NCBI RefSeq assembly: GCF_019084245.1
Contig: NZ_JAHRFE010000022.1
Source: Hoeflea sp.
Lineage (GTDB): Bacteria; Pseudomonadota; Alphaproteobacteria; Rhizobiales; Rhizobiaceae
DNA length: 64,000 bases
Reading direction: 5' to 3' (one strand)
A program made the position numbers and the translations under genes. Under the pieces are notes generated by a model. That model was not told where the DNA came from, ran no database searches, and saw only the letters and a list, made by a program, of their open reading frames with translations. Of this stretch, positions 975 to 64,000 are shown piece by piece. How positions within the stretch are numbered: position 1 is the stretch's first letter; each line of letters opens with the position of its first letter.

Positions 975-1613
975 TCAGGCAGCATCCACCATCACAAGCT
1001 TGCCGTCCGGCAGCGGCCGCTGCAGTTCCTTCGCTTCCTCCCAGGGCGCCGACAGCCAGGTGTCGATCTCCCCGGCCGTGGTCAGGATTACCGGCATCGC
1101 CTTCGGGTGGATCGGCGCGACCACGGCGTTCGGCTCTGTCGTGAGGAACGCAAAAATGTCGGCCTCGACCTCGCCTTCTTTGACCTTGCGAACGCTGGTC
1201 CAGCGTGTCCAGATACCGGCAAAGACAAAGAGCGGCCGGTCCTCCGCTAACGCGAACCAATGGAGAGGTAGCCTCTTCGTCTCAGGGTCACGGTTTTGGC
1301 CATATTCCGAAAACTCAGTCGACGGCACTACGCAACGACTCTCCACGCCAAGCCAGCGCCGCCAATGGGGCGATGACACGTTGCGGACATTGGTCACGCC
1401 GCCATCGGCCTTGCCCTTGATGAACTTGGGCGGTGTTGGCATGCCCCAACGAGCACGGGCCAGCTCGCGCTTGCCGTCGCTATTGCGCACGATCGGCGCG
1501 GAGTAATCTGGGTAGATTTTCCCCGGCTCAAGGTTGCCGGCATGACTCACGACCGCACGCGTGAACTCCAATATGGCCTGCGGGCCGCTCGTGAGATTGT
1601 ATAAGTTGCACAC
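975..1613 (-). CDS. SOS response-associated peptidase (SRAP/HMCES/YedK family) abasic-site protein
   Basis: N-terminal MCNLY (catalytic Cys2), RWG, RCVVP..F.E, FAGIW, HPKAMPVIL motifs. Confidence 0.92.
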   Translation of the reverse strand: MCNLYNLTSGPQAILEFTRAVVSHAGNLEPGKIYPDYSAPIVRNSDGKRELARARWGMPTPPKFIKGKADGGVTNVRNVSSPHWRRWLGVESRCVVPSTEFSEYGQNRDPETKRLPLHWFALAEDRPLFVFAGIWTRWTSVRKVKEGEVEADIFAFLTTEPNAVVAPIHPKAMPVILTTAGEIDTWLSAPWEEAKELQRPLPDGKLVMVDAA

Positions 1614-1671: not shown

Positions 1672-2346
1672 TCAAAGCACCGGCACGAAACGGCGCTCCG
1701 GATCAGCCCGCTTTCCGAGAAAATCAGGCCAATAGCCGACGACTCTTTGGGTGATCTCGGCTTCTGTGATGGTGGTTAGCAGCAATTGGCCGCCGACCGT
1801 TGTTGCGGCAGTGCCAGGATAGTTCGGCATATCCGCCGGCTTCCGAAACGCTTGAAAGAAGCGATGCCCCACATTCTCAAGCCCACATTCAAGCGATTGA
1901 TATGAAAGCCCGGCCGCAAGTTCCTCGCCATTGCCGCTGATCCACAGATCTTCCAACTCCTGCAGCACCATCGGCGCCATACCGAAATCGTTATCTCCGG
2001 TGGCAACGGCGAAGTTGCGGAAACCGAAACGCTTGCCCCACCCTGATATCAAGAAGAGTGACGTTGGCGGTAGCGGACAGGCTCGCCGTGACTTTAGAAG
2101 CGCCAGCCGCAGCTTATCTATCGCGTCGTCAAAATCCATCTCTGCGCACATGTTCGGGATAACGTATTCCGCCATGAAATTGCTTACCGGGATCGTTTCG
2201 CCACGCACCGTCACTGCGGCCCGCAAGCCCGGCAGCAGGATCGTCTTTGGCGACAGGCCAATCATGACGCCAGCCATATCGAGGATGAGAGTGTCGGACA
2301 AAATCTCAATTCGGTCGTCCATAACTAGGGAAATGGCGGCACTCAC
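1672..2346 (-). CDS. putative Ntn-hydrolase, proteasome-beta/HslV-like fold
   Basis: after Met removal S1, D17, K33, G48; C-terminal VGG..TTIT; homologous to 57828-58514; GTG start overlaps upstream TGA. Confidence 0.6.
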   Translation of the reverse strand: MSAAISLVMDDRIEILSDTLILDMAGVMIGLSPKTILLPGLRAAVTVRGETIPVSNFMAEYVIPNMCAEMDFDDAIDKLRLALLKSRRACPLPPTSLFLISGWGKRFGFRNFAVATGDNDFGMAPMVLQELEDLWISGNGEELAAGLSYQSLECGLENVGHRFFQAFRKPADMPNYPGTAATTVGGQLLLTTITEAEITQRVVGYWPDFLGKRADPERRFVPVL

Positions 2347-3145: not shown

Positions 3146-4051
3146 TTGTCTAAATGCGCTTGGATCATCGCAATTGCGCTTGGACTGAATATCTGCCTAG
3201 CAAATCTTGCACGCGCTCAGCCAGTAGACGAAAACGCCCGCGGCGGCGATCGTGCCACTGAACGCCAGCAACAACCAAGCGCAGACATCAATCCAGCACC
3301 TCCGCCGTCCATTCAGGACCTGCTCCAGCGCATTGCCGGCGCGCTGGAGGCTGGGAATGACAAGCCAGAGTCCGATGCCGAAAGGGAGCGCGCTAAGCGC
3401 GATCTTTCTGCTCAAGAAGCCATGGCCAAGTGGGCCAAATGGATGCTGATCGCCACCAGTGCTAGCGTCATCATTGGCGGCTTTAGCCTGTTTCTTATTT
3501 GGCGCACCGTAATTTACGCCAAACAAGCCGCCGTGGCCGCTCACGCTACGGTCAATGTCAGCAAAGAAATTGGCGTCGCGCAAACGCGCTCCTATATTTC
3601 CGTAATCGGAGGGGGGTTTATTCTCAATAAAGGTGGGTATTCCGGCTTCATTGACGTGAGCAATAGCGGACATTCCCCGGCGGTTAATCCGAAGATTGAG
3701 GTCACAATAAATCTGGCGGAGGCATGGTTCGGCGGCGCAACCATGGGGGCCAAACCGCCGCATCGCGATATCCAGCCTTTCGTTGGTAAGAAGGATAAAA
3801 TTCAACCCGGCGAAACCTCGCGTTTCTATTTCTTTTGGACAAAGGAACAAATCGCCGAAATTTTTGATCTCCTCAACCATGGCCGAAATACCGTTGTCCT
3901 CACCTGCAAGCTGAGTTCCGAAACCATCTATCCCAAGGTGGTTGATAAGGGGGCTTGGCAACTTACTAACTACCCCGGCTTCGTTAGGGTTACTGATGAA
4001 AGTCGTGTGGCTGAGGGAGTCTTGTACCCCCGCCAAAGCCAAAAGAAGTAA
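3146..4051 (+). CDS. predicted exported/membrane-anchored hypothetical protein (moron)
   Basis: signal-like N-terminus, internal TM segment WMLIATSASVIIGGFSLFLIW. Confidence 0.6.
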   Translation: MSKCAWIIAIALGLNICLANLARAQPVDENARGGDRATERQQQPSADINPAPPPSIQDLLQRIAGALEAGNDKPESDAERERAKRDLSAQEAMAKWAKWMLIATSASVIIGGFSLFLIWRTVIYAKQAAVAAHATVNVSKEIGVAQTRSYISVIGGGFILNKGGYSGFIDVSNSGHSPAVNPKIEVTINLAEAWFGGATMGAKPPHRDIQPFVGKKDKIQPGETSRFYFFWTKEQIAEIFDLLNHGRNTVVLTCKLSSETIYPKVVDKGAWQLTNYPGFVRVTDESRVAEGVLYPRQSQKK

Positions 4052-4135
4052 TGCGGCCCCCGCCGCGCGAAGTCTCATGGTTCCGGCCTACTCAGCGCTG
4101 GACAATTCATGGTGATTTCCTGTTTTAGAGCGCGG

Positions 4136-5791
4136 TTAGACCGCGAACATGCTCAAATCGCTCAGGTCCGCGTCCTCATATGAAGACCGGCCCGACGCGC
4201 CCTGCGCGGCCCGCCCTATCGAGATAATCGCCGCAACGGCCGGATCTATCTTGTCAATCGAGCGCTCTTTCAGCGGGCGCCTGTTGCCGCTGGCGTCGGT
4301 ATGCAGGACAACGTTTCCGATCGCCCAGCGCAGCATTGGATTGCCGCCATGGACTAGCCGGCGCTCGAACATGAGCGCCTCAAAGTCAATGACGGGCCGC
4401 GCGAAGGTGGCGATGTTTTGCGGAAACTCGGCAACCGGCAGGCCATCGTCCTCAAGGGATTTCATGATGTCCTGCGCATGCCACCTATCGAAGGCGATTT
4501 CCTCGACCTGAAACCGTTCGGCCAGGTCGCGGATATAGTCCTCGATCATGCCAAGATCGATCGTATCGCCGGGCGTCACAGTCAAGAACCCCTGATCGCG
4601 CCATAGGGCATAGGGGACGTTATCCGTTCGCCGGCGCACCGCACCCTCAGGACAAAAGGTCTGGACGTGCAACGCGTAGCTGTCATCGGCTAGCGGTACC
4701 GCCAACGATACGGCCGCCAAGTCGATGCGCTTGGCCAGGTCGACTCCGATCCATGCGCGCCGCCCCTCGATTGCGGTAAGGTCCAGTTCACCGGAGTTTT
4801 CATCCCAGACGTCTAACGACCATTCGGGGTTAGCCGCGCCATCAAGCCAGACATTCAAATGAAGTTGGCGGAACATTTCCCGATCCGCCGGCCTGTGTTC
4901 GGCTTCGCGCACCATCTGGCGCATGCCGTCGACGTCGGGATAAGGCGGATCGCACGAAAGGCCAGGGTTGACCCGATGCCAAACCGCCTCATCGCGCCAG
5001 TCTTCCTCGGGGTCAGCTTCGAACAGGATCGGGAGAAACGCATTGTCTTCGATCTGTCCGGTGGCGACCGCCTTGGCATATTTGTACATTTCATGGGCAA
5101 TGTTTTCGTGCCCGATTCCGGCCGTGGTGGTGACAACCAAAAGGCTGCCAGGCGTCTTAACAAGGCCGGTTTTGATGGCGTCCCAAAGATCGCGCTTTTT
5201 CCATGCGTGAAGTTCATCGACCAGCGCAAAAACCGGAGTGCGCCCATGAGCCGTTGCCGCGTCGGCTGACATCGCACGATAGAACGCGCCGGATCGCTTG
5301 TGTGCAATCCGGTTTTTCGTGTCTTGAACTTGAAAGGCTTCGGCCAGCCGCGGATGCGCGCCAATTACGCCTTTCATTTCCTCCAAGGCTATGCGCGCCT
5401 GATCGCGGTCAACCGCTGCGCTAACCACCTGCGAACCCGGAATCCGTTCCGGCCCCAAGTGCAGCATTGCCAGCGCGGCGCCCAGCGTGGTCTTGCGGTT
5501 GCCGCGTGGGATTAGTGCGAAAACGGTCTTGATCCGTCGCGTGCCGTCTGGCTTTGTGTCGCCATACACCTTGCGGAGAATGCGCTCCTGCCAGCGGTCC
5601 AATTGAAAGGCCCGCTTAGTGGCCGTGCTCTTTGGATGGCGCAACGCTTTTAGAAACTTGACGGCGCGTTCGCCTTTTCCGTGCGGATCAGGAATGATGG
5701 AGTCGTCAAAAACCCACGCGGGATAGGCAGAAACATTTCTGTCCGAAATGTTTCCTTCAGATATCGCCAAGGGCGTCGTCGTCATCGTCAC
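4136..5791 (-). CDS. terL: phage terminase large subunit (Terminase_1 type)
   Basis: Walker A-like PRGNRKTT, Walker B LVDELHAW, nuclease GVDLA and IDPAVA motifs. Confidence 0.95.
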   Translation of the reverse strand: MTMTTTPLAISEGNISDRNVSAYPAWVFDDSIIPDPHGKGERAVKFLKALRHPKSTATKRAFQLDRWQERILRKVYGDTKPDGTRRIKTVFALIPRGNRKTTLGAALAMLHLGPERIPGSQVVSAAVDRDQARIALEEMKGVIGAHPRLAEAFQVQDTKNRIAHKRSGAFYRAMSADAATAHGRTPVFALVDELHAWKKRDLWDAIKTGLVKTPGSLLVVTTTAGIGHENIAHEMYKYAKAVATGQIEDNAFLPILFEADPEEDWRDEAVWHRVNPGLSCDPPYPDVDGMRQMVREAEHRPADREMFRQLHLNVWLDGAANPEWSLDVWDENSGELDLTAIEGRRAWIGVDLAKRIDLAAVSLAVPLADDSYALHVQTFCPEGAVRRRTDNVPYALWRDQGFLTVTPGDTIDLGMIEDYIRDLAERFQVEEIAFDRWHAQDIMKSLEDDGLPVAEFPQNIATFARPVIDFEALMFERRLVHGGNPMLRWAIGNVVLHTDASGNRRPLKERSIDKIDPAVAAIISIGRAAQGASGRSSYEDADLSDLSMFAV

Positions 5792-6164
5792 CAGGCGCGC
5801 CCCCTTTGTTCTTTGTTCGGCTTGCAGGCGTCAGACCTAGCTCCGCGGCTAGCCGGCGGGCGGCCTCGATCGCCTCTTTAAGGATGGTTGTTTCAGGCCG
5901 GCGCTTAAGGTCGCCGCTTACCGAAACCATTGTCAGCCCTTCGGCTTGCAGGATCGCTTCGGCCTCCCGCTTGCGCGCAACGCAAAGGCAATAGTCCTCG
6001 ACCGTCCCCAATTCGTGCGCGGCAATTTTCCGATCGGCGACTAGCTGCGGAACCACGCGCGCCCATTCGGCGCGGCCGTGCGGTGGCAACCAACGCGGCG
6101 CCGGCGGCGCTTTTGATAGCGCCCCGTCAAGCGAGTTGATTTCCGGTTTCCTGCCCCTGGCCAT
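5757..6164 (-). CDS. terS: phage terminase small subunit (P27 family)
   Basis: MARGRKP start, PPAPRWL, LGLTPASR motifs. Confidence 0.9.
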   Translation of the reverse strand: MARGRKPEINSLDGALSKAPPAPRWLPPHGRAEWARVVPQLVADRKIAAHELGTVEDYCLCVARKREAEAILQAEGLTMVSVSGDLKRRPETTILKEAIEAARRLAAELGLTPASRTKNKGGAPGDDDDDALGDI

Positions 6165-6166
6165 GG

Positions 6167-6745
6167 CTATTCCCAATCGTAAGAGCGGAAATTGTCGAGC
6201 GTCGATTCCGCACCATGTGGAACGCTCATCATGGAAACATCCGAAACGGATTCGCGGTTCTCGAAATAGCTTGACGCGATCTGCAGGATCGCCTCACGAA
6301 TTGCCGCCGGCACGTCGGCCGCAGTGGCGCCATAGCCTGCGACATACCGAACGCGGACGGCATTTATCGTGGCCTTCGGCGTTGGCCACCCGCTTGCCGC
6401 TGGCGCAATCCAGCCCGGCACGCTGTATGTGTCGACCTCATAATCCGTGCCAGCGGTCAAGGTGACTTCAAGGCCGGTATCCGGTGCGACGTATTTGACG
6501 GACGTGACGGACTGCAGCCGCCCAGCGGGCAGCTTAAGAGGGCCGCGCGGGAACGTGTCTAGCACCAACTCGAACTCAGTCGATATGAACGGAAACCCTA
6601 GATAGCGCTCCGCATATTCGCGGGCCGCTGTGATCTTCTTCTCAATGCCAGCGTCTTCATCGGCGTATTCGATGCGCGCGTGACTCTTAAATTCAGCGAC
6701 CGTCACCGGCTCGACGGCCGGCGCGGTTATCGTGATGACAGCCAA
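6167..6745 (-). CDS. head-tail connector (gp6-like, long phiE125 gp8 type)
   Basis: EPVTVAEFKSHARI, VPAAIREAILQ...YFENRE motifs. Confidence 0.85.
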   Translation of the reverse strand: MAVITITAPAVEPVTVAEFKSHARIEYADEDAGIEKKITAAREYAERYLGFPFISTEFELVLDTFPRGPLKLPAGRLQSVTSVKYVAPDTGLEVTLTAGTDYEVDTYSVPGWIAPAASGWPTPKATINAVRVRYVAGYGATAADVPAAIREAILQIASSYFENRESVSDVSMMSVPHGAESTLDNFRSYDWE

Positions 6746-6764
6746 GGCGGCCTCCTAGGTTAAA

Positions 6765-6845
6765 ATTCCTATTTAGGATGAATACAGAACGTCTCTACCC
6801 CGCTGGTCCAGGCCAAACGGCGAGAAATTGACGACCGCCCCCCGG
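6765..6845 (-). other. probable cos/packaging region
   Basis: minus strand GGGGGGCGGTCGTCAATTT...GACCAGCGGGG...CCTAAATAGG, resembles sequences between HNH and terS of HK97-like phages (pattern inference). Confidence 0.45.
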
Positions 6846-6875
6846 TTGTGCGAAGCTTTGAGAATGGGAAACGAG

Positions 6876-7319
6876 ATGAAAGTATTTCTTCGTTTGGTTC
6901 TCGTGCTGTTCGCGAGCACGATAGCGAACGTGTCCCTGGCTTCGGACAAGGAATGTCTTTCTCCCCACACAAAATATGATGTGTGCAAAGCGGCTAGAGA
7001 GATCCAAGAATCGATGGCGCCAATGCTTCCCATGACAATGAATGCAAACATGACGTTGACTTCGGTGGCTGCTATTGGCCCTATATTTGCCTATTACGTT
7101 AGATGGACGCAAACATGGCCTGAGATCGAAGCTGCCATGCAAAACGCTGGCACGACAAAAGCCGCGCTTCTACAGATGATGGATGCACAAACAAACGCGA
7201 TTATTTGCGGGCAGGAAACTACTGCTGCATTCATCGGTCTCGGAGGAACGGTCCAGTACCACTACATCACATCTGATGCAGTCCCCGTCACCACTACAGT
7301 AGTGTCTTCGTGTCCCTGA
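6876..7319 (+). CDS. secreted protein, possibly PA3611/AspS pilotin-like fold (moron)
   Basis: signal peptide MKVFLRLVLVLFASTIANVSLA; LP...T..SV...G...Y; C...GG..QYHY...C pattern; lower GC. Confidence 0.55.
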   Translation: MKVFLRLVLVLFASTIANVSLASDKECLSPHTKYDVCKAAREIQESMAPMLPMTMNANMTLTSVAAIGPIFAYYVRWTQTWPEIEAAMQNAGTTKAALLQMMDAQTNAIICGQETTAAFIGLGGTVQYHYITSDAVPVTTTVVSSCP

Positions 7320-7324
7320 ATTAC

Positions 7325-7687
7325 TCAGCACTGTAGACGCCCGAACGCACCCTCACTCTTGATCGCCTTGCGCCTGTTGCACGTGTCGTGAAATGGCTGC
7401 CAATTCGATCGGCGCCAAAACAGTTTCATGTCGCCTTTCGGCGCCTCTATGTGATCCACCATGTTGGCAGCACGACCGCAGCCACAAGCGCATAGCGGGG
7501 TGCCAAGCGCTGCCAGCCATGCCTTGGACTCCTTGGCCCACTTGCCATCATAGCCGCGCTGTGCGGCGCTCCCACGCGCCAGGTCACTAGCCTTCTGGCG
7601 TGCCTCTGCATTGCGCTGCTGACAGTCGCATCGCGTGCCCTTCGGCACTGCATAGCCGCACGGACAAATGACATTCGGCATGTTCAA
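7325..7687 (-). CDS. HNH endonuclease (terminase-associated)
   Basis: RGYDGKW, CACGCG, VDHI, N...H..CN..K. Confidence 0.9.
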   Translation of the reverse strand: MNMPNVICPCGYAVPKGTRCDCQQRNAEARQKASDLARGSAAQRGYDGKWAKESKAWLAALGTPLCACGCGRAANMVDHIEAPKGDMKLFWRRSNWQPFHDTCNRRKAIKSEGAFGRLQC

Positions 7688-7876
7688 TTCCTCTTTATGA
7701 AAGGGGCGACCATCATCCCGATGGCCGCCCCAGTGCGGTTCGGCAGAACCGCTTTTGCGCGTCGGACATCACCCCGACACTTGGCCACCCATCAGCACGC
7801 TATGACCTTCAGAAGGTGGCGGCTCGTGCTGACAGTTAAGGATTGACCCAACCCCAAGGATACGCCGCCGGATTGG

Positions 7877-8263
7877 TTAGGATACAGGTCGCGAAGCGGC
7901 ATGGCCCTTGACCACGACGGCGCCGGCCGCAATGGACGTGCCGCTGTTCTTTGTGATCACGGTCCGGATATATCGTTTGTTGCCAATGTAAGACTGTTTG
8001 TAGACCGTGCTCGCCGCAAGGGCTGCAGGCAGCGTGCCGATCAAGTCGGCCGCGGCAACGTCGGCAAAGTCTTCCGACGTTGTGGTGTCGGATTCCTGCA
8101 GTTTCGCAGTGAAGTTGCCGCTGGATACGATGGCGCCGGTGTTGACGACTAGGGCAGCAGAGTCGAAGCCCTTAAGGTCGATGGCGGCGCTGGTGTCGGT
8201 TGCGGCAAGCACCTGCGGCACAACGGCCGCCACGACGCCAATATTATGCGAAAGATCGCGCAT
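7877..8263 (-). CDS. conserved head-associated protein following the capsid gene
   Basis: MRDLSHNI...IDLKGFDSA...KLQESDTT; near-identical motifs in the paralogue at 63707. Confidence 0.8.
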   Translation of the reverse strand: MRDLSHNIGVVAAVVPQVLAATDTSAAIDLKGFDSAALVVNTGAIVSSGNFTAKLQESDTTTSEDFADVAAADLIGTLPAALAASTVYKQSYIGNKRYIRTVITKNSGTSIAAGAVVVKGHAASRPVS

Positions 8264-8332
8264 GGGTATTCCTTTCAAAAGGGGAAGCGGGCCGCCGAAG
8301 CGGCCCTATAGGATGTTCCGTATGGAAACGGC

Positions 8333-9475
8333 TTACGATTCAGCAACGCGAAGCTTGCGCAGCGCCTCAGCCATGACCAGATCCGCACCAACGCGGCGAC
8401 GCGCATGGAACCGGACCTTTCCGGTGGTGGCCTGAGTGTAAGGATCTCGCAGCATCGACATCGCCACGCGGTCATAGACGCGGTAAGCGCGGTTGACGTC
8501 GCCGAACAGGATCGGAAATTCCCCGGCGCCGATGTCATCCATATCGACGGCTTCGACAATCGGGCGACCAAGCAGCGTTTCAGGCTGGCCAGCCTGATAG
8601 CTCGGCTGCCAAAGGTAATTGTTGGTTGTGTCCTTCAGCTTGCGAATTGCTGCAATGGTCGTGCCGTTGGCCATCCACACGCCCTTATTCCGGTAGTAGG
8701 CGGGTAGGTCATACATGAGCGTGATCAAGCTATCGGCGGTGATCAGCGTTGCGTGACCGCTCGCGACATCGGTAACGCCAGCCGCGGCCATTATGCCGGT
8801 TGGTTTTTTCACGCCATTGCCGGAAACTAGCGCAACACCTTCAAGCCGGCCGAATTCTTCCGCCAAATCGCTGGCCACTTCGGACTCGACGTTTACCGCG
8901 GCGTCTTCGAGGAGCTGCACAGAAACATCGACATAAGCCGCCATTTCGTGAACCGGAATTTCGACCTGGCCATAAGCGGATTCGGTTTCGGTGCGCGTCT
9001 CGGTTTCGCCAACCCAATTTGCGGTCGGCGTCCCGGTGCGCTTTGGCAGGATAACCGAACCCCGCGACGTGGAACCAACGCGGGCCGCCTGCCGGACAGG
9101 CGAGAATTCAACAATGCCCTTTAAGATTTCCGTGGAAAGCTCAGCGGGAGCCAGATAGCCGCCGCGGGTGTCATCGGCAACGACCAGCGATTTTACTTCG
9201 TCGGCTGGCATACGTTCGGCGCCATATCGCAGGAAGCCTTCAAAGGCTTTGCGCTCCGGTGTCGGCTCATTGTCATTGGCTGCCTTGCCGATGATAGCCG
9301 GCCGCGCCAGCTTCGTTTCAAGTTCGGCAATGCGACCGGCCAAGCCGTTGTCGTTGGCGGCCTTAGCCTTCACCTCAGCGACGGATTCGGCAAGCGCGGC
9401 AAGCGCGGCCTTGACCTCATCAACCGGGTTGTCAGTGGCGGATTTGGTTTCGAGTTTATGAGCAAGATTGCGCAT
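8333..9475 (-). CDS. major capsid protein, HK97 fold
   Basis: GGYLAP, WVGE, YLWQP, LLGRP, FGD motifs; N-terminal coiled delta domain containing two AANDN. Confidence 0.95.
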   Translation of the reverse strand: MRNLAHKLETKSATDNPVDEVKAALAALAESVAEVKAKAANDNGLAGRIAELETKLARPAIIGKAANDNEPTPERKAFEGFLRYGAERMPADEVKSLVVADDTRGGYLAPAELSTEILKGIVEFSPVRQAARVGSTSRGSVILPKRTGTPTANWVGETETRTETESAYGQVEIPVHEMAAYVDVSVQLLEDAAVNVESEVASDLAEEFGRLEGVALVSGNGVKKPTGIMAAAGVTDVASGHATLITADSLITLMYDLPAYYRNKGVWMANGTTIAAIRKLKDTTNNYLWQPSYQAGQPETLLGRPIVEAVDMDDIGAGEFPILFGDVNRAYRVYDRVAMSMLRDPYTQATTGKVRFHARRRVGADLVMAEALRKLRVAES

Positions 9476-10012
9476 CTAGATTCCCTTAATTGTCTGATTG
9501 GTTTTGTTGATCGCCGCGACCAATGCGGCGAAGTCCGTGCCGCTATTTTTGACGGACGTGACGGTCGCGGATTCGTTCATCGGAAACGTCACAATTGACG
9601 CCTCCCGAAGTTCGATTTCGTGGAGAAGGCGGGCGCCTTGTTTGCGGTCCATTTCGTCGCGGATTGTGCGGAATCCGATGGAGATTCCATCAACCGCCTC
9701 AGCCTTCATGAAGGCGTAAACCTCGCGGCCCTTGACTGTATCAAGGAGGATTCTGCCCTCGGCTCGCAGGCCAAAGGCGTCCTCTTCAAATTTGGTCCAT
9801 ACGCCAATCGGCTCCGTCGTGTCGTGCTGCCACAACATCTTGACCTTGCGCGCCGGGTACTTCTGCAGGCTGCTTTTGAACGCGCCAGGCATAACGATAT
9901 CGCCGCCGCGGTCTTTGACTCCGAACACACTGGCATAACCAGAGAACGTGCCGTCTTCTGCGATCGCCTTGATATCAAGCTCAATCGCGGCGCCCTGTGT
10001 GGTGGTGGTCAT
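9476..10012 (-). CDS. HK97-family prohead protease
   Basis: FSGYASVFG, MLWQHD, GISIGF, EASIVTFPMN. Confidence 0.95.
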   Translation of the reverse strand: MTTTTQGAAIELDIKAIAEDGTFSGYASVFGVKDRGGDIVMPGAFKSSLQKYPARKVKMLWQHDTTEPIGVWTKFEEDAFGLRAEGRILLDTVKGREVYAFMKAEAVDGISIGFRTIRDEMDRKQGARLLHEIELREASIVTFPMNESATVTSVKNSGTDFAALVAAINKTNQTIKGI

Positions 10013-11226
10013 GCCGCCGCCTCCGTTGTGGGTTGGTTGTCGTTGGCGGCCGATGGCGCCGTGTCGATCGCCGGATTTGCGAACACCTCGCCGCCGTCAC
10101 GTGGCGCCATGCCAAGCCAGTCGCGCGCTTCATTAGGATTGAGAACGCGCGCCGTGATCAATGTGCTGATAGCGGTTGCGCGTGCCGTTAGGTCGGCTTG
10201 GCTGGTGTCGTCGATGTCGAAGGCGAACCGAAGACCGGAGCGCCGCTCGGCTTCCGTCAGGAGCGCGCGATTGAACGCGCCTTCTAGAACGCGCAGCCAT
10301 GGGATAAGAGTGTATTGAATAAACTCTTTCGCCTGTTGCTCTGAGTTTCCCCAGGTGTTCCGCGTCAATTCGTACAGCATGCCAGGCGGAACCCGGAATG
10401 CCCGCGCGATTTCAAGGATCTGGAATGTTCGGCTAGCCGTAAACTCGCCGTCGACGGACGTAAGCGCCATCTGTTGATAGGTCGCGCCTTCATACAGGAC
10501 GGCCGTTTTGCCGGCGTTGGCCTTGCCGCTAAACGCGGCCTTCCAACCTGCCAACATGGCCTTGACGCCATCCGTACCTAGCTTGTTTGGCGTCTGAATA
10601 ACCCCGCCAGGTCGCGCGCCGTTTGTCCAAAGGCCATTGGCATAACCCTCCATAGCCGACGCCGTGGCGATGGCACTACGCGCCATTGTGAGGGGACATT
10701 TTGTAAACGGGCCGCGGACGTGAAGGATGTTCTTTGCCGATGCGAATTGCCCATTAATCCGATAGCGCGGCTCGCCTGTCTTGTCGTCATAATCAACGGC
10801 AATTATTCCGTCGCGGTAGATGATCAGTTCGCGCGGCTGGTCGTAGACCTTGGTTACATAGGCAATGCCGCCCTGGTCCTTCGTCAATGCGCCGGCGACC
10901 AGATCGCGGATAAGCTCAAAGCCCGATGTCCAGCCGTTCGCCTGTCCGGTAAGCAGCGCCAGCGCCGGGTGGTCGGATACGTCTTCCTCAGCGTCGCCAA
11001 CCTTGCGCTTTAGCTTGATGTCCAGGCTTGGCGCCGCCTCGGCAATGACGCGGACCGCAGCCGACACGGCAGGGACGGACAGCGCTTCCGCGTCGCTGAT
11101 TGTCGAGCCGGCAGGCACCGCGCCGAACAGTTCGAGAAGTTCGGCGGTTGGATCGCCAAGTGATTTTTGCTCGGCCACCACGGGCGGCGCCGCAACAGGC
11201 GTTTCTGATCTACTGAATGGCCACAT
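10009..11226 (-). CDS. HK97-family portal protein
   Basis: NGARPGG, EIARAFRVPP, TPNE-like LNPNEARDWLGM; ends AANDNQPTTEAAA. Confidence 0.95.
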   Translation of the reverse strand: MWPFSRSETPVAAPPVVAEQKSLGDPTAELLELFGAVPAGSTISDAEALSVPAVSAAVRVIAEAAPSLDIKLKRKVGDAEEDVSDHPALALLTGQANGWTSGFELIRDLVAGALTKDQGGIAYVTKVYDQPRELIIYRDGIIAVDYDDKTGEPRYRINGQFASAKNILHVRGPFTKCPLTMARSAIATASAMEGYANGLWTNGARPGGVIQTPNKLGTDGVKAMLAGWKAAFSGKANAGKTAVLYEGATYQQMALTSVDGEFTASRTFQILEIARAFRVPPGMLYELTRNTWGNSEQQAKEFIQYTLIPWLRVLEGAFNRALLTEAERRSGLRFAFDIDDTSQADLTARATAISTLITARVLNPNEARDWLGMAPRDGGEVFANPAIDTAPSAANDNQPTTEAAA

Positions 11227-11638
11227 CGGCAGCCTCCTTTACAATGGACTGCACAATGCTGCCGATTGGAATCACGATCGTCGAAACGTCGAATTTCAGC
11301 CTTGGCACGTCGCGGTCGGAAATGATGCGAGGCGAGCCGCATGCCCGCCTCATGACGGCCGGTGCGACTAGCAAGGCGTCTGCGGCCGGTGGCGTCCGCA
11401 GATTTTGAGCGGCGGCTGCGATAGCCATCAGCCATGAGCGGCCGGCTCGCTCCAGTTCAAAAGCAATGCGAAGCACTGCGACGTCTTGGATGCTAAACCA
11501 GCGCCTGCCCTTGCGCTTCTCCGAGAACAGGACGTCGAGGGTCCGATTGCGGCTGATGATGACGTCTAGATGTTTGCGTGAGAGGCCGACGATTCGCGCG
11601 GCCTCGGCGACTGTGAGGTCGCGCGTTGTCCAGGCCAT
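11210..11638 (-). CDS. MerR-like HTH protein at the head of the packaging operon
   Basis: LTVAEAARIVGLS...GRRWFSIQDV...ELERAG; GGAGG RBS. Confidence 0.7.
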   Translation of the reverse strand: MAWTTRDLTVAEAARIVGLSRKHLDVIISRNRTLDVLFSEKRKGRRWFSIQDVAVLRIAFELERAGRSWLMAIAAAAQNLRTPPAADALLVAPAVMRRACGSPRIISDRDVPRLKFDVSTIVIPIGSIVQSIVKEAADVAIQ

Positions 11639-11681
11639 TGGGCGGCCTCCTACGATGGTTAGAATTTCGAAAAGGCAAACA

Positions 11682-11729
11682 AAAAGCTGCGCCAGTGAAG
11701 CGTCTTGCGTTCAAACTGGCGCAGCTTTT
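11682..11729 (-). terminator. intrinsic terminator-like hairpin upstream of the head operon
   Basis: perfect 15-bp IR AAAAGCTGCGCCAGT / ACTGGCGCAGCTTTT followed on the minus strand by a U-rich run. Confidence 0.6.
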
Positions 11730-11867
11730 ACAACCTCGCACCGTTGCAGGACGCGCCGGCGCGGAGGCGATCAACCCACTGTGCGAAAGCGGGGATCAGT
11801 GAATTGATGGTGAGTAACCGCGCGCGGCCACCCACCGGCCGGCGCGGTGAAGCGCGCCGAAACAGAA

Positions 11868-11891
11868 AAAGGCCGCATCGCTGCGACCTTT
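11868..11891 (-). terminator. intrinsic terminator-like hairpin
   Basis: minus strand AAAGGTCGCA-GCGA-TGCGGCCTTT then TTCTGTTT; GNRA loop. Confidence 0.55.
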
Positions 11892-11934
11892 CCCATAAAT
11901 ACCCTTTGGCGTGCTGAAATGGGGTACCCCAACC

Positions 11935-12654
11935 CTATGCGGCCCTAACCCCGCGCCAATATCGATCAACGATTTCGAAGCCGTCAAATATGCGTGCCCG
12001 CGCCTCGCCCTTGGCGCCCTTCACGCCGGCGCCCAGCAGTTTGCCGATTTCTTCAAGGGTGAGTCCATCAAGAACAGACCATTCAAACGCGGCTAGTATT
12101 TTCGGAACAAAGCCCAGCCTTGCGCGGAGGTAGGCCAAGTCCCGTCCCGCATCGATTGCGGCCAGCAAAGGCCAGTCGCCATTCCATGCCTTGGGCACTG
12201 GCTTGGCGTTCTGGCGCGGGGCGATTGCCACGTTTGCCTTCCGTCCCTCCACCTGTTTCACACCCTTGTCGCGGCCGCTCTCGTCCTGATCGCGCAGGAG
12301 GTAAAGGTCATCAAGCGCCTGGCCTTTCAGTTCGGGCAGATGCGCCATGTCGCTCAACTCTCGATAGCTCTCCGCAAGGCGGAGACAGTAGGCGTTGCCT
12401 TCAGTCTTAAGAAGCTTGGCTAGAGGCCAATCCTGATTATCGTTCGCGGCCTGGCCGCTGTACTTGCTTGATCCGATGCGCGCCGCCTGCGAGGCCAGCC
12501 GCCATTCTAGTGTAGGTCCATCCTCGATCGCCTTGCCGCGGGCTGCGGGCTTTGTCCGCGGTGGTGTCCAGTCATTGGCCGGTTCAATGATTTTCTGCAG
12601 CGTATGTCGGCGATCGAAAACCGCCGGGTCCTTCAAATCCATGTCTTCACCCAT
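11935..12654 (-). CDS. putative late transcription regulator with C-terminal sigma-70 region-4-like HTH
   Basis: DGLTLEEIGKLLG HTH; position between replication and head genes; start 12654 or 12642 uncertain. Confidence 0.55.
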   Translation of the reverse strand: MGEDMDLKDPAVFDRRHTLQKIIEPANDWTPPRTKPAARGKAIEDGPTLEWRLASQAARIGSSKYSGQAANDNQDWPLAKLLKTEGNAYCLRLAESYRELSDMAHLPELKGQALDDLYLLRDQDESGRDKGVKQVEGRKANVAIAPRQNAKPVPKAWNGDWPLLAAIDAGRDLAYLRARLGFVPKILAAFEWSVLDGLTLEEIGKLLGAGVKGAKGEARARIFDGFEIVDRYWRGVRAA

Positions 12655-12870
12655 GGTTAGTGTGTCGTCGTACCGGACAGGCCGGCGGCTAGTGGGTGGC
12701 TGCATAAAAGGAAATAGTAATTTCGCTGAATTTCCGCCACTATATTTATGCGGCCAGCTCAACTAAAAGCGGCGCATATCCGAAATTCGTCAAGTCCTGC
12801 TGTCCAGCTTCTTGCAAACATCAAGAAGCTCATCCCCGCTACGGACCGCTTCACCACTTATCAGCCTCTA

Positions 12871-13002
12871 CACGTTACACGCGTTACATACACATACACT
12901 ACATGTATGTGTATGTAACGCTGTGGTGTAACGCTTGCAGGCTATGATGTGGCCGCGTGACAAGGCGTTACAATTGTAGTGTTATGTAACGCTCTGTAAC
13001 GC
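12871..13002. other. putative replication origin: 18-bp palindrome plus CGTTACA/TGTAACG repeats
   Basis: GCGTTACATACACATACA (12881-12898) / TGTATGTGTATGTAACGC (12904-12921); further (G)CGTTACA or TGTAACGC copies nearby. Confidence 0.65.
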
Positions 13003-14079
13003 TGGTCTAAGATCAAATTTCCCATCAATCTCGATTAAAAATTCATCTGTCAAAGCGGCCCTCTGCCTTGAAAACCTTTGTCTTTTCGTGCCGTCCTTTA
13101 TATCGCCAGCCGCTTCATAGACCGCGGCCCGCCACTGATCTTCAGTCACAGGCGCATTGTCGTTGGCGGCAATGGCGGCCCGTAGAACCGCAGTCGCCTC
13201 GCCAATCGCGCGGCTAGCCTTTTGTAGCGGTTTTGTCACGCTCGGCGGTGCGCAGGGCACAAGAACCGGCGCCGTGGTGGCAATGCCATCGTGCTCGGCG
13301 AGCGTGACCGTTTCCATTCGATAGGTGCGGATCGGCCTGTCTGCCGACTCGTTGTTCTTCATCACTTGAGCCGTTGAAACGTCCCGCTTGCGGGTGATGA
13401 GGATAGACATATCGGCAGCCGCCTGTAGTTGCCCGCCGCCGCGCATGCGCTTCTCTCCGCTCACTGGCGTGTGGTGCACCACGACCACGGTGCAGCCGAA
13501 CGTTTGGCCGTCATGAAAATTTCCGCACCGCGTCGCGTCCGTCAGATTAAACACGGCACGCGCCATCCCGTCGGGGCTGGAATCGCTTACACTCATCGCC
13601 GCCGCCAGGGTGTCAATAACGACAACTTCAATGCTGTCATCCAACATCAGGTTGGCGGTTCGCAAAATCGCGCGCAGGGCATACGGCTCGGCTAAATCAA
13701 TCGGTCCGTCATAAACCAATACGTTGTCAAACGGCTCGCCGTCGTGGTGTTTGATGAACGCATCAATGCGCCGCTCAACCTGGCCCGCGCGTTCGGCCGC
13801 GATGTAAAGCACGTTTGACCGATACGGCAACGTGCCGCCGTCAAAGTCCAGACCAGCCGCAAGCCGGCATGTAACGTCAACAGCAAAAACGGACTTTCCA
13901 GCCTCAGAGGGTCCGTAAATCACAAGCAAGTCATTAGTCGCAACCCAGCCAGGCATGCGCCAATACTTACGAATATCGCGGCCTTCGCGGTTGTGGATCT
14001 TCAAATTGCTGGATATTTCAGAATACAAATTTTGATCTGTATCAAAATCTGACCAGTCAACACTTGACAAATTTGTCAT
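12982..14079 (-). CDS. RepA-type (AAA_25, RecA-like) replicative helicase
   Basis: Walker A GPSEAGKS, Walker B VVIDTL, VVVHH, RGGGQL; no N-terminal primase domain evident. Confidence 0.85.
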   Translation of the reverse strand: MTNLSSVDWSDFDTDQNLYSEISSNLKIHNREGRDIRKYWRMPGWVATNDLLVIYGPSEAGKSVFAVDVTCRLAAGLDFDGGTLPYRSNVLYIAAERAGQVERRIDAFIKHHDGEPFDNVLVYDGPIDLAEPYALRAILRTANLMLDDSIEVVVIDTLAAAMSVSDSSPDGMARAVFNLTDATRCGNFHDGQTFGCTVVVVHHTPVSGEKRMRGGGQLQAAADMSILITRKRDVSTAQVMKNNESADRPIRTYRMETVTLAEHDGIATTAPVLVPCAPPSVTKPLQKASRAIGEATAVLRAAIAANDNAPVTEDQWRAAVYEAAGDIKDGTKRQRFSRQRAALTDEFLIEIDGKFDLRPALQSVT

Positions 14080-14150
14080 AATGCCCTATTCTCCTTTATG
14101 TGTAATTGAACAATTTGCCCGCCCTGATTTTTCAGTGGCGGGCTTTTTTT
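14064..14150 (+). ncRNA. predicted promoter plus ~50-nt counter-transcribed RNA upstream of the helicase gene
   Basis: TTGACA (14064-69)-N17-TATTCT (14087-92); hairpin 14117-14143 followed by T7 on the plus strand only. Confidence 0.55.
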
Positions 14151-14152
14151 GG

Positions 14153-14353
14153 TTAGTCGATAGTGTCTTCCGCTTCCCTGGCTGCGAACTCGGCCATATC
14201 TTTCCGCTTCGCCGGATCCTCGATCCGGATCATTCCTTGAATAACCATAAGCGAGGCAGCCCCGTCAGATGGAAGGCCCACGGCCATCAACTGGCTGATC
14301 GCATCCTCAATAATTTCGCGGGCCTTCTGATTCTTGTAGTCGCCGACCTTCAT
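14153..14353 (-). CDS. small hypothetical protein
   Basis: ATG overlaps the alpA TGA (ATGA); MKVGDYKNQKAREII... Confidence 0.65.
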   Translation of the reverse strand: MKVGDYKNQKAREIIEDAISQLMAVGLPSDGAASLMVIQGMIRIEDPAKRKDMAEFAAREAEDTID

Positions 14354-14562
14354 GCTGCAGCCCTCGCCTGTACCTTTGTCCTTATCCACGCCATCACCTC
14401 AGAGCGAACAAACGCCACTCGCCTGTCGCCAAGCTCTACGGCGATCGGGAATCTGCCTTCGGCGCGGTAGCGGTTGAGCATCGTGCGCGACATGCTGGTC
14501 ATGCGGCAGGCGTCGTTCAACGAAACCAGCGTTGGTTCATTATCGTTCGCGGCTTTTTCCAA
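14350..14562 (-). CDS. alpA: AlpA-family regulator/excisionase
   Basis: AAGGAA RBS plus TTG; SLNDACRMTSMSRTMLNRY...FP.....G.RRVAF..SEV..WI. Confidence 0.88.
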   Translation of the reverse strand: MEKAANDNEPTLVSLNDACRMTSMSRTMLNRYRAEGRFPIAVELGDRRVAFVRSEVMAWIRTKVQARAAA

Positions 14563-14710
14563 TTTAATTTCCTTCCGGGGTTGACAGGTTTGCAGGAAAT
14601 GGTAGATTGACATCAGTGCTTCAATTGGGCTATCTGTTGATTGCTTACATCAGAGATGCCAGTCTGAAATCTAGTTGCATCTTACAAAAATGTCAACATG
14701 GCCGCTTTGG

Positions 14711-15886
14711 CTATTGGCAGTAGTCTGCCCATTCGCCCATCAGAGCGCGCCGCCGCTCCAAAGCATCCGACCGGGCGTAAGACCTTTCAACCGCATCGCC
14801 AACCGCATGACAGAGCGCCGCTTCTGCTATTTCGCGGGGCGCATGCGCGACTTCGGTTGCCCAATCGCGGAAGGTCGATCGGAACCCGTGAACCGTATAG
14901 GCGGCCGCCCCTGCCGATTTCAGCGCCTTTGCCAAGCTCATATCGGAAAGCGGCTTTCCGGCGCGCACGCCGGGGAAAACAAGATCGTTTACTGATTGCG
15001 CTTTCATAACCTTTAGCACCGCCAAGGCCGCGCCTGACAGCGGCACGCGATGCGGCTTGCCTCCCTTCATCCTTATGGCCGGAATCGTCCAGACGGCCGA
15101 CTCTATGTCAATCTCCCCCCATGTCGCGCCTCGGGCTTCCCCACTGCGCGCCGCCGTCAATATGGTGAACTCCAGCGCCCGCGCCCCGACGCCCTTGATC
15201 TTTGCCAGCGACCGCATGAAGGTCGCCACATCTTCATGCGGCATAGATGCGTGATGACGGGCCGCGACAAGCGCGTTCGGCTTGTGCAGCACATGCTCAA
15301 GATTGCCCTTCCACGCGGCTGGATTGTCGCCGGTTCGGTGTCCATCGACGCGGCTCGCGTCCAGAACGCGCTCAATCGATTCCCGCAACTTTTCGGCGGT
15401 TTCCTGCTTCACACCCCAAAGCGGTTCCAAGACCTTTTTGATGTCCTGAATGTCAATGTCGCCGATCGGCCGCCCGCGTATCGCAGCGGCATGGTTATTG
15501 ATTGCGTTCCGCCATCGCGCCTCGGTTTTCGCGCCGCGCCATTTGCCAGCCTTGACGGCGCGGTCAATGAACTTGTCGGCATAGGCTCCAAACAGGACCA
15601 CGGCAGGCGTAGAAGCCTCGACTTCGCGCTTGTCGCGAATCGGATCGACTCCGGCCCGCACCATTGCACGCGCCTTCTGTGCCGCTTCCCGCGCATCTGC
15701 CAGACTAACAGAATGAAGCGGGCCTATGCCCATTTCACGCCGTCTGCCAAACAAGGTGTAGTTGAAGATCCAGTACCGGCCGGTGCCCTTTGTGACCAGC
15801 CACAGACCACCACCATCACGCAGCTTGAGCGCCTTGCTTGCCGCGATTCCTTTGACCGTCAGGACGTTTTTTGTATGGCTCCCCAT
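14711..15886 (-). CDS. int: P4-family tyrosine integrase
   Basis: arm-binding N-terminus DGGGLWL...REMGIG; catalytic TAARSGE, HGFR, RSY. Confidence 0.95.
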   Translation of the reverse strand: MGSHTKNVLTVKGIAASKALKLRDGGGLWLVTKGTGRYWIFNYTLFGRRREMGIGPLHSVSLADAREAAQKARAMVRAGVDPIRDKREVEASTPAVVLFGAYADKFIDRAVKAGKWRGAKTEARWRNAINNHAAAIRGRPIGDIDIQDIKKVLEPLWGVKQETAEKLRESIERVLDASRVDGHRTGDNPAAWKGNLEHVLHKPNALVAARHHASMPHEDVATFMRSLAKIKGVGARALEFTILTAARSGEARGATWGEIDIESAVWTIPAIRMKGGKPHRVPLSGAALAVLKVMKAQSVNDLVFPGVRAGKPLSDMSLAKALKSAGAAAYTVHGFRSTFRDWATEVAHAPREIAEAALCHAVGDAVERSYARSDALERRRALMGEWADYCQ

Positions 15887-60685: not shown

Positions 60686-60715
60686 GTTGAAATCCTTTCG
60701 CTTTTCGCCATACGT

Positions 60716-60760
60716 TCAACAATTGAGAACGATATTATCATGTTCGTTCACAATTGTTGA
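60716..60760. promoter_or_regulatory. inverted pair of 13-bp operator-like sites
   Basis: TCAACAATTGAGA (60716-28) and TCACAATTGTTGA (60748-60, reverse complement TCAACAATTGTGA). Confidence 0.5.
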
Positions 60761-60808
60761 TATGAGGATGAAATTCCTATAAGGATTATAGTCCTAAACA
60801 TCGGAGAA

Positions 60809-61999
60809 ATGCCATTGTTCGCCAGACTGCGACAGGTTTTCAGCGCACCGGATCGGAAGAGCCTGGCGAACCCGACCGAGGAGGAGCTGAGGCTGTTCAC
60901 CGGCGGCACCCTTGGCGGATCCTTCGCGGTCTCCGCGACCGAGGCGCTGCAGGTGCCATCCGTGCAGCTTGCAATCCGTCTGATCAGTGAAGGAGTCGCC
61001 GCTCTTGATCGCCGCGTGGTGCGGATCGATGGATTGCAACAGATCGACGCGCCCGACCATCCCGCAAGCCGCTTCCTGACCAGCCATTGGAACGACTGGA
61101 CCTCGCCTTTCGAAGGCGTCCGCGATCTGGTCTCTTCGGCGCTCACTCATGATTTCGGCGGCGTGCAGTGGCTCAACAAGCCCGACGGCGAGCTTCGGGA
61201 AATCGTCGCCTATCGGTCGCTCACGGTCCAATTCGATACCGACACCGGGGAACCGAGATATCAGCTTGGCACGCGCCCGCTGCCCGCCGATGAAATCGTT
61301 CATATCCGCGGCCCGTTCTCGCGAAGCCCGCTCAGCCTGGCACGCGAAAGCATCGGCGTTGCGCACCTCATGGCCGAACGCGCGGGCAAGCTGTTCAAGA
61401 ACGCGGCCCGGCCGGGCGGCTGGATTGAGTTCCCCGAATTTCTGGACGAAGACGCCTTCATCCGCATGAAAAAGAGTTGGGAAGAAGCGCACGGTTCATC
61501 CGAAAACAGCGGCAAGACCGCAATCCTCTACGCCGGCGGCAAGTTCCATGCTGCCGAGTTCAAGTCGACCGACGCTCAATTCCTCGAGCTGAAGAAAGAG
61601 CAGGTGGTCGAGATCGGCCGGGCCTTCGGCGTTCCGCCTTCGATGCTGTTCAATCACGACAGGGCGACCTGGTCGAACTATGAGACCGCCGCCCGGTCCT
61701 ACATGGTCGAGACGCTTGAAGCCTGGATTCGCGTCACTGAGGCAGCACTGACCCGCGCCTTGATCCCGGCTGGCGAGCGGAAGACGTACCGCGTTGTCAT
61801 CGATCGCGACGATCTCACCCGGGCCGACCTGGTGGCCCGCGCGACCGCGATCAACAGCCTTCGCGCTTCCGAGGTTCTTTCGGCAGATGAAGCCCGCGAT
61901 TGGTTGGGCATGGCCCCGCGGCCGGCTGATCGGCTCGACGATTACAAGAACCCAAACATCAACCCTGATCGCGCACCAGCGCCAGCGGAGGCCGCGTGA
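60809..61999 (+). CDS. HK97-family portal protein
   Basis: NAARPGG, EIGRAFGVPP, SADEARDWLGM. Confidence 0.95.
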   Translation: MPLFARLRQVFSAPDRKSLANPTEEELRLFTGGTLGGSFAVSATEALQVPSVQLAIRLISEGVAALDRRVVRIDGLQQIDAPDHPASRFLTSHWNDWTSPFEGVRDLVSSALTHDFGGVQWLNKPDGELREIVAYRSLTVQFDTDTGEPRYQLGTRPLPADEIVHIRGPFSRSPLSLARESIGVAHLMAERAGKLFKNAARPGGWIEFPEFLDEDAFIRMKKSWEEAHGSSENSGKTAILYAGGKFHAAEFKSTDAQFLELKKEQVVEIGRAFGVPPSMLFNHDRATWSNYETAARSYMVETLEAWIRVTEAALTRALIPAGERKTYRVVIDRDDLTRADLVARATAINSLRASEVLSADEARDWLGMAPRPADRLDDYKNPNINPDRAPAPAEAA

Positions 62000-62502: not shown

Positions 62503-62503
62503 G

Positions 62504-63682: not shown

Positions 63683-63706
63683 GACAGGCCGGGAAAGGAA
63701 AAGCAC

Positions 63707-64000
63707 ATGCGCGATCTCGCAAACAACATCGGAGCTGTGCAGGCCGTCGCGCCTGCCGTGCTCTCGGCAACAGACACCAGCGCCGCGATCGACCTTCTCG
63801 GGTTCGAAAGCGCGGCCCTGATCCTCAACACCGGCGCCATCGTGTCGGCTGGTGACTTCACGGCCAAGCTTCAGGAAAGCGACACCACGACCGGCGGCGA
63901 CTTCGCCGATGTTGCGGCGGCTCACCTGGTCGGAACGCTGCCGGCCACGCTTGAGGCGGCAAGCGTCTACCGGCAGGGCTATATCGGCACGAAGCGGTAT
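63707..64000 (+). CDS. conserved head-associated protein, 3'-partial
   Basis: MRDLANNIG...IDLLGFESA...KLQESDTT, paralogue of 7877-8263. Confidence 0.8.
   Translation, partial: MRDLANNIGAVQAVAPAVLSATDTSAAIDLLGFESAALILNTGAIVSAGDFTAKLQESDTTTGGDFADVAAAHLVGTLPATLEAASVYRQGYIGTKRY

Follow-up and report, generated by a model that had tools for sequence, protein, structure and literature searches.

Origin of a tag-like tail on a portal protein

Why should the portal protein of a phage-like element end in a sequence laid out like the peptide that transfer-messenger RNA (tmRNA, the product of ssrA) appends to proteins on stalled ribosomes? The question arose from a 64,000-nucleotide stretch of a Hoeflea sp. 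genome (contig NZ_JAHRFE010000022.1; this whole stretch is called the window), in which an earlier note pointed to a portal gene closing with codons for AANDN, a five-residue spacer, AAA and a stop. From this layout the note inferred that the portal might be constitutively pre-tagged for ClpXP. The analysis presented below indicates that the portal tail carries one of six copies of the same motif within a single satellite-like element, that the conserved part is ANDN, and that this part is identical to the start of alphaproteobacterial ssrA tags. The genes and segments at the centre of the question are:

10009..11226, minus strand: HK97-family portal gene, 405 amino acids (Pfam PF04860, E-value 5.5e-79)
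10009..10050 exactly, minus strand: 13-residue portal tail AANDNQPTTEAAA plus TGA stop codon, with the ANDN core at 10036..10047
9476..10012, minus strand: S78 prohead serine protease gene (Pfam PF04586, E-value 4.3e-36), devoid of ANDN

The PF04860 match covers profile positions 1-321 of 321, identifying the protein as an HK97-family portal, and a homologue search returned 645 relatives. The C-terminus reads ...IDTAPSAANDNQPTTEAAA followed by TGA; in its wider context, SAANDNQPTTEAAA-stop, AANDN occupies residues 393-397. Counting from the A of ANDN, 12 residues remain to the C-terminus, a spacing compatible with an ssrA-like degron, as the encoded tags of Caulobacter and A. tumefaciens measure 13 residues, and the closing AAA supplies the terminal Ala-Ala pair that in tags is the ClpX signal. 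The tail is predicted to be a flexible, disordered extension, since residues 371-405 have no secondary structure in the AlphaFold2 model (predicted local distance difference test, pLDDT, below 50 for 391-405) and the alignments with the solved portals of HK97 and of the Rhodobacter capsulatus gene transfer agent (RcGTA) end at about residue 385. These residues are encoded in frame and followed by a normal stop codon; the tail is thus not a true tmRNA tag, which is added at stalled ribosomes. As the earlier note had cautioned, the EAAA-stop end also encodes the coupling to the downstream gene: the portal stop overlaps the ATG of the protease gene (ATGA, in GGAGGCGGCGGCATGA), and the AA residues are partly constrained by the ribosome binding site and start codon of that gene.

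Six copies of the motif in one element

A six-frame scan of the 64 kb found AANDN six times, always on the minus strand, inside real genes and within the interval 9269..14553. The five copies besides that of the portal, which had escaped the earlier note, are the following:

9347..9361, minus strand: capsid copy 1, residues 39-43 in the delta domain, KAANDNGLAGR, in a variable linker before the conserved xLxxRLxxxETKLxRP helix
9269..9283, minus strand: capsid copy 2, residues 65-69 in the delta domain, GKAANDNEPTPERKAF, upstream of the Phage_capsid domain (105-376)
12436..12450, minus strand: residues 105-109 of a 275-residue protein, QAANDNQDWPLAKLL
13156..13170, minus strand: residues 304-308 of an AAA_25 replication protein, IAANDNAPVTED, C-terminal to the ATPase domain (27-208)
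14539..14553, minus strand: residues 21-25, in the N-terminal extension of an AlpA-like regulator/excisionase, EKAANDNEPTLVS, just before the helix-turn-helix (HTH) domain (30-77)

The two genes not yet placed are:

8333..9475, minus strand: HK97-type major capsid gene, 380 amino acids (Pfam PF05065, E-value 1.5e-88; best solved match the RcGTA capsid, 6TB9)
11935..12762, minus strand: 275-residue protein matching no Pfam or PHROG family, with the segment SGQ[AH]ANDNQ[DE]WPLAKLL

All five copies in proteins matched by Pfam fall outside the domain envelope, and capsid copy 2 also precedes the point where matches to the mature domain of solved structures begin; the sixth copy is that of the 275-residue protein. 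Such a concentration is far from what composition would produce. When the 14 element proteins (3436 residues) were shuffled 20,000 times, ANDN appeared 0.026 times on average and never more than twice, as against the six copies found. Permuting A, A, N, D and N gives 29 further orderings, which together occur only 2 times in the six-frame translation of the 64 kb, and AANDN itself occurs only in the gene frame, with zero copies in the other five.

Two pairs of window copies are identical over 15-16 nucleotides (repeat families D3 and D4). A DNA repeat as the source of the motif was nevertheless ruled out by codon variation between copies: the KAANDNEPT segments of the capsid and of AlpA, for instance, differ at 8 of 9 wobble positions. 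Because synonymous codons differ in this way, selection appears to act on the peptide and not on the DNA. The motif also sits mostly at internal positions, where it cannot act as a C-terminal ClpX degron.

Conservation in portal orthologues and the terminal Ala-Ala

The survey of related portal C-termini that the earlier note had called for found ANDN within the last 30 residues of 51 of 57 orthologues at 61% identity or more, the remaining six having one-residue variants (ANEN, ANNN, ANGN, DNDN). The AANDN is thus under selection. Measured from the A of ANDN, the C-terminus is 10 to 19 residues away, with a mode of 11-13, a length like that of a tag. Most tails follow the pattern NPAID(T/V)AKP(A)ANDNxP(P)xxEAA, although their final residues differ (EAA, ETA, ESA, NGK, AAN, IAV and others).

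The proposal of a complete tag fared less evenly. It describes the window portal correctly; as a conserved feature it fails, because half of the portals with ANDN end otherwise than in AA. What is conserved in portals is ANDN and not the entire tag. The Ala-Ala end is all the same associated with the motif. Among 235 unique portal tails, 37 of 74 with ANDN and 17 of 24 with a one-residue variant end in AA, compared with 22 of the 137 that have neither (50% with ANDN versus 16% without the motif; Fisher odds ratio 5.2, p 3.5e-7). The note's warning that the AA end is uninformative on account of the coupling to the protease gene is justified as a constraint on the window portal. It does not account for the enrichment: overlaps of the ATGA or GTGA type are equally common in portals with the motif (13/25) and without it (63/135), which rules out coupling as its cause.

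Spread across related loci and protein families

The wider distribution of the motif was followed in 160 loci chosen by portal alignment, 80 from genomes and 80 from IMG/VR. Among the 12,884 unique open reading frames (ORFs) on the portal strand of these loci, a set that includes some spurious ORFs and related sequences, ANDN occurs 116 times and each of the 11 other orderings of its residues 1-7 times. The shorter NDN was counted 194 times, against 35 for DNN and 32 for NND; it is preceded by A 116 times and by D 28 times. Aligned, the copies give the consensus K-[A/P]-A-N-D-N-x-P, and their codons are mixed at all wobble sites.

The motif is found at non-homologous linker or terminal sites across many protein families. 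It lies in an N-terminal linker of the AAA_25 proteins of three loci (L001-L003) versus the C-terminal region of the window protein, and in either N-terminal extensions or C-terminal tails of AlpA-like proteins; it is also present at one TerL N-terminus and at the N-termini of tape-measure-like proteins (KAANDNF). The portal-specific roles that the earlier note had suggested, setting head stoichiometry or trimming the portal crown, leave the copies in AlpA, replication, methyltransferase and tape-measure-like proteins unexplained. In the capsid, the delta region contains two variable linkers around a framework which motif-free lineages and the RcGTA capsid share without having ANDN. On this ground it was rejected that the two capsid copies derive from a motif conserved in the delta domain since earlier times. 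For the 275-residue protein, the ANDN segment is kept in a homologue from a distant genus (Limoniibacter, L052), where it reads HANDNQEWPLAKLL; farther homologues (L004, L055, L077, L163, L174) have ANDN(E/K)..P(L/I/V)CEAL instead. Judged from these placements, the motif was gained repeatedly and independently in these elements.

One gene marks the lineage that bears the motif:

11210..11638, minus strand: MerR-like HTH gene directly upstream of the portal gene

The genomic loci with the motif are exactly the 12 that have a homologue of this gene upstream of the portal. They carry 1-7 ANDN copies each and come from Rhizobium, Mesorhizobium, Phyllobacterium, Ensifer, Ochrobactrum and Limoniibacter. 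When the viral set and the window are added, the homologue is present in 32 loci, and a few IMG/VR loci have the motif with no detectable homologue. In sequence data the motif can serve as an easy means of recognising one lineage of satellites and prophages of Rhizobiales.

Two Mesorhizobium loci of this group (L012 18389..20812; L067 16611..18704) encode a long tape-measure-like protein whose N-terminal KAANDNF contains the first six residues of the Caulobacter tag; both carry the MerR-like gene and the portal gene and look like complete prophages as opposed to satellites. Upstream of the HTH gene and the portal gene, a family of small proteins (58-122 residues) is encoded in which a common segment, ...KSELVAELRRLA, precedes an ANDN close to the C-terminus; none of its members ends in AA. 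Members are found at:

L001, 8254..8520
L023, 8407..8580
L086, L087 and L088

Identity with the start of the ssrA tag

Published tags allow a direct comparison. AANDN is identical to residues 1-5 of the Caulobacter tag, AANDNFAEEFAVAA (PMC9393093), and corresponds to Ala plus residues 1-4 of the tag of A. tumefaciens, a member of the Rhizobiaceae, ANDNNAKEYALAA (PMC12493166); measured against these tags, the portal segment is an exact copy of the alphaproteobacterial tag start. The Rfam consensus for the permuted tmRNA likewise opens its reading frame GCa AAC GAu AAc (A-N-D-N).

The two ends of a tag do different work. In E. coli the adaptor SspB binds the first seven residues, whereas ClpX recognises the last ones (PMC9963277). 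A protein with AANDENY alone is bound by SspB but not degraded; joined to a weakened C-terminal signal, the same segment brings about SspB-dependent degradation (PMC8512704). Terminal sequences of this composite kind were also found outside portals in our set. ANDN lies at most 30 residues from the stop in 12 non-portal proteins, six of which end in AA with the layout ANDN-x5-9-AA-stop. The tails ending in AA belong to AlpA-like proteins (ANDNVRAMGVAA, ANDNQRIAARAAA and ANDNARAMRPQTRAA) and to three unrelated proteins (ANDNVQRDMAA, ANDNLRAAMKKSAA and ANDNLKKIIAA). Counted by independent non-portal family, 4 of 6 end in AA versus a background of 4.5% among all complete ORFs of at least 80 residues (p 5.7e-5). 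These tails lend independent support to the layout of adaptor site, spacer and AA-COOH that the earlier note had put forward.

In alphaproteobacteria, an SspB orthologue that delivers tagged proteins is said to have been described by Lessner and by Chien in 2007. Set beside the ssrA/SspB/ClpXP system (AANDENYALAA in E. coli; AANDNFAEEFAVAA with SspB-alpha in Caulobacter), the sequences under study share the first residues, (A)ANDN, and, in the C-terminal cases, the succession of adaptor site, spacer and terminal AA, over a total length of 11-15 residues compared with 13-14 in tags. They differ in being encoded in genes rather than added by trans-translation, in being mostly internal, in having an unrelated spacer rich in proline and charged residues, in closing with AA in only some half of the C-terminal cases, and in their presence in many proteins of one mobile element. 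The engineered DAS and DAS+4 degrons (AANDENYSENYADAS; PMC8512704), synthetic constructs made for E. coli, combine an SspB site with a weakened C-terminal signal, so that their degradation requires the adaptor; portal endings such as ...KQETA and ...KQESA look similar to them.

The nearest precedent in a phage is provided by the C-terminal ssrA-like tags on repressors and integrases of the BPs type (PMC4557955). In the integration-dependent immunity system of mycobacteriophage BPs, as would be the case here, a temperate phage encodes ssrA-like tags that control the stability of its own regulators (PMC4557955). Those tags, however, have a C-terminal ClpX-type signal only, are confined to the repressor and the integrase and are removed by integration, whereas in the present elements it is the adaptor-binding half that is conserved, spread over structural, replication and regulatory proteins and often internal. 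A literature search found no description of the ANDN motif or of SspB mimicry in phages. What would be new is mimicry of the adaptor half of the tag over many proteins of a satellite, recurring in unrelated phages of alphaproteobacteria.

The motif in unrelated phages

An exact-pattern scan of viral contigs for KAANDNEP, which samples a single extended form of the motif (a 37-bit pattern with about one chance match estimated), returned 18 stretches, many of them unrelated to the window element. On contigs of 41-45 kb the portal is only 24% identical to that of the window, yet ends QPANDNKQDEADAA. On other unrelated contigs the motif lies in the interdomain linker of Toprim-primase/helicase proteins and in the C-terminal tail of a methyltransferase-like protein. 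On a contig of 36% GC, a GH19-lysin protein opens with six tandem AANDNxP repeats, all with different codons. More generally, GH19/lysozyme-domain proteins of low-GC phages start with 3-6 tandem AANDNxP(L)T repeats:

L173, 3..1622, minus strand: GH19/lysozyme-domain virion protein of a low-GC phage; also P0121 and P0122

All database matches to these repeat-bearing proteins are unnamed metagenomic proteins. The tandem arrangement suggests avidity for a multivalent partner.

A 59% identical homologue of the lysin, with three repeats, is encoded at 10001..11791 of L178, a contig of 0.39 GC which belongs to a T4-like myovirus (gp32, gp59, gp2, gp5, gp25 and baseplate genes). The same contig contains a tmRNA gene:

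L178, 16422..16789, minus strand: permuted tmRNA gene (alpha_tmRNA RF01849, 84 bits; tmRNA_permuted RF04321, 114 bits)

Its tag, VNDTYAMEYALAA, is altered exactly at the ANDN positions, with VNDT for ANDN. A tmRNA gene of the alpha type makes an alphaproteobacterium the probable host of this phage, in which event the T4-like case leaves the link to alpha-type tags intact. At 13735..13755 of another locus (L182), the sequence ...KAANDENYALAA-stop at the contig end is a 3′ fragment of an ssrA gene of gammaproteobacterial type and probably marks a prophage integrated into ssrA.

A candidate SspB-docking motif

We propose that ANDN is a genome-encoded docking site for SspB that copies the start of the host tag and becomes a full ClpXP degron when it is C-terminal and followed by AA, a reading that we are about equally inclined to accept and to doubt. 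ANDN would reproduce the invariant start of the host ssrA tag, the part that docks SspB, which in turn tethers substrates to ClpXP; that the partner is SspB, the protease ClpXP and the outcome a change in protein fate is what we infer from this identity. Where the motif lies 10-15 residues from an -AA C-terminus, as in the window portal, SspB site and ClpX site together would make a complete degron. Internal copies would provide SspB docking alone, and degradation or remodelling would then need a second, weaker ClpX signal. The likely result is SspB-dependent turnover of regulators and replication proteins, such as AlpA and the primase/helicase, and of structural subunits that have not been assembled. 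The copies in capsid, portal and tape-measure proteins lie in parts that, to judge from HK97 biology, would be buried or removed on assembly, allowing assembled particles to escape. Regulators and replication proteins are classic unstable proteins, and the placement of the motif fits conditional turnover.

Several observations weigh against this proposal. No tmRNA or tRNA gene was found in the window or in the 80 genomic loci, so that the host's own tag could not be read; nor was a host sspB gene seen, and a literature search on sspB in Rhizobiales was uninformative. The residue after ANDN is rarely aromatic in the phage copies, in contrast to real tags (F, Y or N); most copies have E, Q, N, K or T and then P, and if an aromatic residue is essential there, they might bind poorly. 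ANDN is often accompanied by K at -2 and by P at +2, neither of which belongs to the tag. The motif counts over the related loci are not phylogenetically independent. About 68 other portal relatives of the genomic set have no motif in their element proteins; they include some from the same genera and all those from Rhodobacterales, and their hosts presumably have tags that also start with ANDN. Finally, a scan of the viral contigs for AANDENY gave 8 hits, about the number expected by chance and including one genuine ssrA fragment at the end of a prophage, and hence no sign of an equivalent mimicry of the E. coli-type tag or of a motif that follows the host tag from one bacterial class to another.

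Instead of SspB, the motif may bind another partner, supplied either by the alphaproteobacterial host or by the elements themselves; its identity with the tag would then be coincidental or reflect a partner that also recognises tags. The enriched K and P, the predominance of internal copies, the association with the MerR-marked lineage as opposed to all phages of these hosts, and the lack of an AANDENY analogue in other phages all speak for such a partner, which we regard as possible, if improbable. Chance would very rarely make five residues agree exactly with the beginning of the host tag, and the joint enrichment of -AA at tag-like spacing in independent families is predicted only by mimicry of the tag. 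A partner encoded by the element is further disfavoured by the occurrence of the motif in unrelated phages with no obvious gene in common. Were the partner not SspB, the motif would represent a strongly selected phage-host interaction whose other half is still to be identified.

An unlikely variant, in our opinion, is that the motif acts as a decoy, abundant late proteins soaking up SspB and shifting the choice of ClpXP substrates, either by stabilising those that depend on SspB or by freeing ClpXP. This would suit the two copies in the capsid, the most abundant protein, and the arrays of 3-6 copies in one virion protein, and in E. coli AANDENY lacking the ClpX signal does bind SspB and escape degradation (PMC8512704). 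Titration would be ineffective, however, from the low-copy regulators and replication proteins that carry the motif, and the protein with the tandem arrays, of the tail or a lysin, is itself of low copy number. Real degradation signals are what the -AA enrichment suggests, and the benefit of blocking SspB is not evident.

We give little credence to the possibility that the S78 prohead protease of the element recognises or cleaves at ANDN so as to trim the delta domain and the portal tail. In the HK97 system the capsid delta domain and the portal C-terminus face the interior of the prohead, where the protease acts, and the delta domain accounts for two of the six copies in the window. These copies, at residues 40 and 66, are nonetheless not at the boundary of the mature domain, which begins at about 85-105. 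The motif is present in AlpA, replication proteins, a methyltransferase, TerL and tape-measure-like proteins, as well as in a T4-like phage whose protease belongs to another family, and relatives with homologous proteases do without it. A nucleic-acid signal or a compositionally favoured linker with no peptide function is barely conceivable: two pairs of window copies are indeed identical over 15-16 nucleotides and all copies are on one strand, but synonymous codons vary freely, the motif is always in frame in the 64 kb, the 36% GC phage keeps it with entirely different codons, and the order specificity (116 versus at most 7) excludes composition.

Should ANDN be the SspB-docking motif proposed above, it might also endow the element with a sensor of proteolytic load, a doubtful extension that we mention for its consequences. 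In healthy cells SspB and ClpXP would keep the activator, the replication proteins and the head proteins low. A flood of genuinely tagged proteins, upon helper infection or translational stress, would compete for SspB and ClpXP (proteolytic queueing) and stabilise all of them, switching the element on with no dedicated sensor. On this view, the T4-like phage would be taking part in the same contest with its tmRNA, whose tag starts with VNDT.

If the docking reading is correct, a mobile element would have placed a host adaptor-binding motif across its whole proteome, beyond the tagging of a single regulator. This would add a layer of post-translational control to satellites and a quality control of unassembled virion subunits. 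The motif would also furnish natural SspB-dependent degrons for Rhizobium, Agrobacterium, Brucella and Caulobacter, in which such tools would be useful.

The satellite-like element and its surroundings

The element that holds all six copies (element 1) has the following position:

4136..15886, minus strand: element 1, about 12 kb, ends approximate

From 15886 down to 4136 the gene order is integrase, AlpA, a 78-residue ORF, the AAA_25 primase/helicase-like protein, the 275-residue protein, the MerR-like HTH protein, portal, S78 protease, HK97-type capsid, phrog_5707, HNH, phrog_8772 on the plus strand, a gp6-like connector, TerS and TerL. Element 1 has the layout of a capsid-forming phage-inducible chromosomal island (cf-PICI), a class of satellite. 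The core gene set of this class lies between 4136 and 15886, with a replication protein of the AAA_25 type, and Pfam and PHROG profile matches reveal no tail or lysis family among the ORFs of the element, in keeping with the absence of tail and holin genes that characterises the class. A second head-tail adaptor, also part of the cf-PICI set, was not positively identified; phrog_5707 is a family of unknown function. The ends are approximate because no convincing direct or att repeats were found flanking the element, and the left boundary in particular is uncertain.

With cf-PICIs, as far as the available text of PMC10085698 describes them, element 1 shares the integrase, an AlpA/MerR regulator, a replication protein, HNH, terS, terL, portal, protease, capsid and connector genes and a size of about 12 kb. 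It differs in its permuted order, the portal-capsid block standing ahead of HNH-terS-terL, and in a host, placed in Rhizobium by the portal homologues, outside the families which that text names; an ANDN-type motif is not known to have been reported for cf-PICIs. The nearest GenBank entries labelled as phages, judged by the portal, are elements of 15-16.5 kb at only 32% identity, with no closer named cultured relative.

The sole gene of the opposite strand inside element 1 may be satellite cargo:

6828..7319, plus strand: phrog_8772 match, with a hydrophobic N-terminus resembling a signal peptide

Just past the TerL end of element 1, at 975..1613 on the minus strand, is a gene for an SOS response associated peptidase (SRAP, PF02586), separated from TerL by two ORFs that match no family (1672..2346 and 3197..4078). 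At the other end of the window, a second HK97-type head module (element 2) occupies 58673..64000 and runs past the window end. ANDN is absent from all of it, including its portal, as the earlier note had stated for AANDN in that protein. Its recognisable genes are:

60809..61999, plus strand: portal, ending ...DRAPAPAEAA
61996..62502, plus strand: probable protease
62504..63682, plus strand: capsid, with the same delta-region framework as in element 1 and the motif absent

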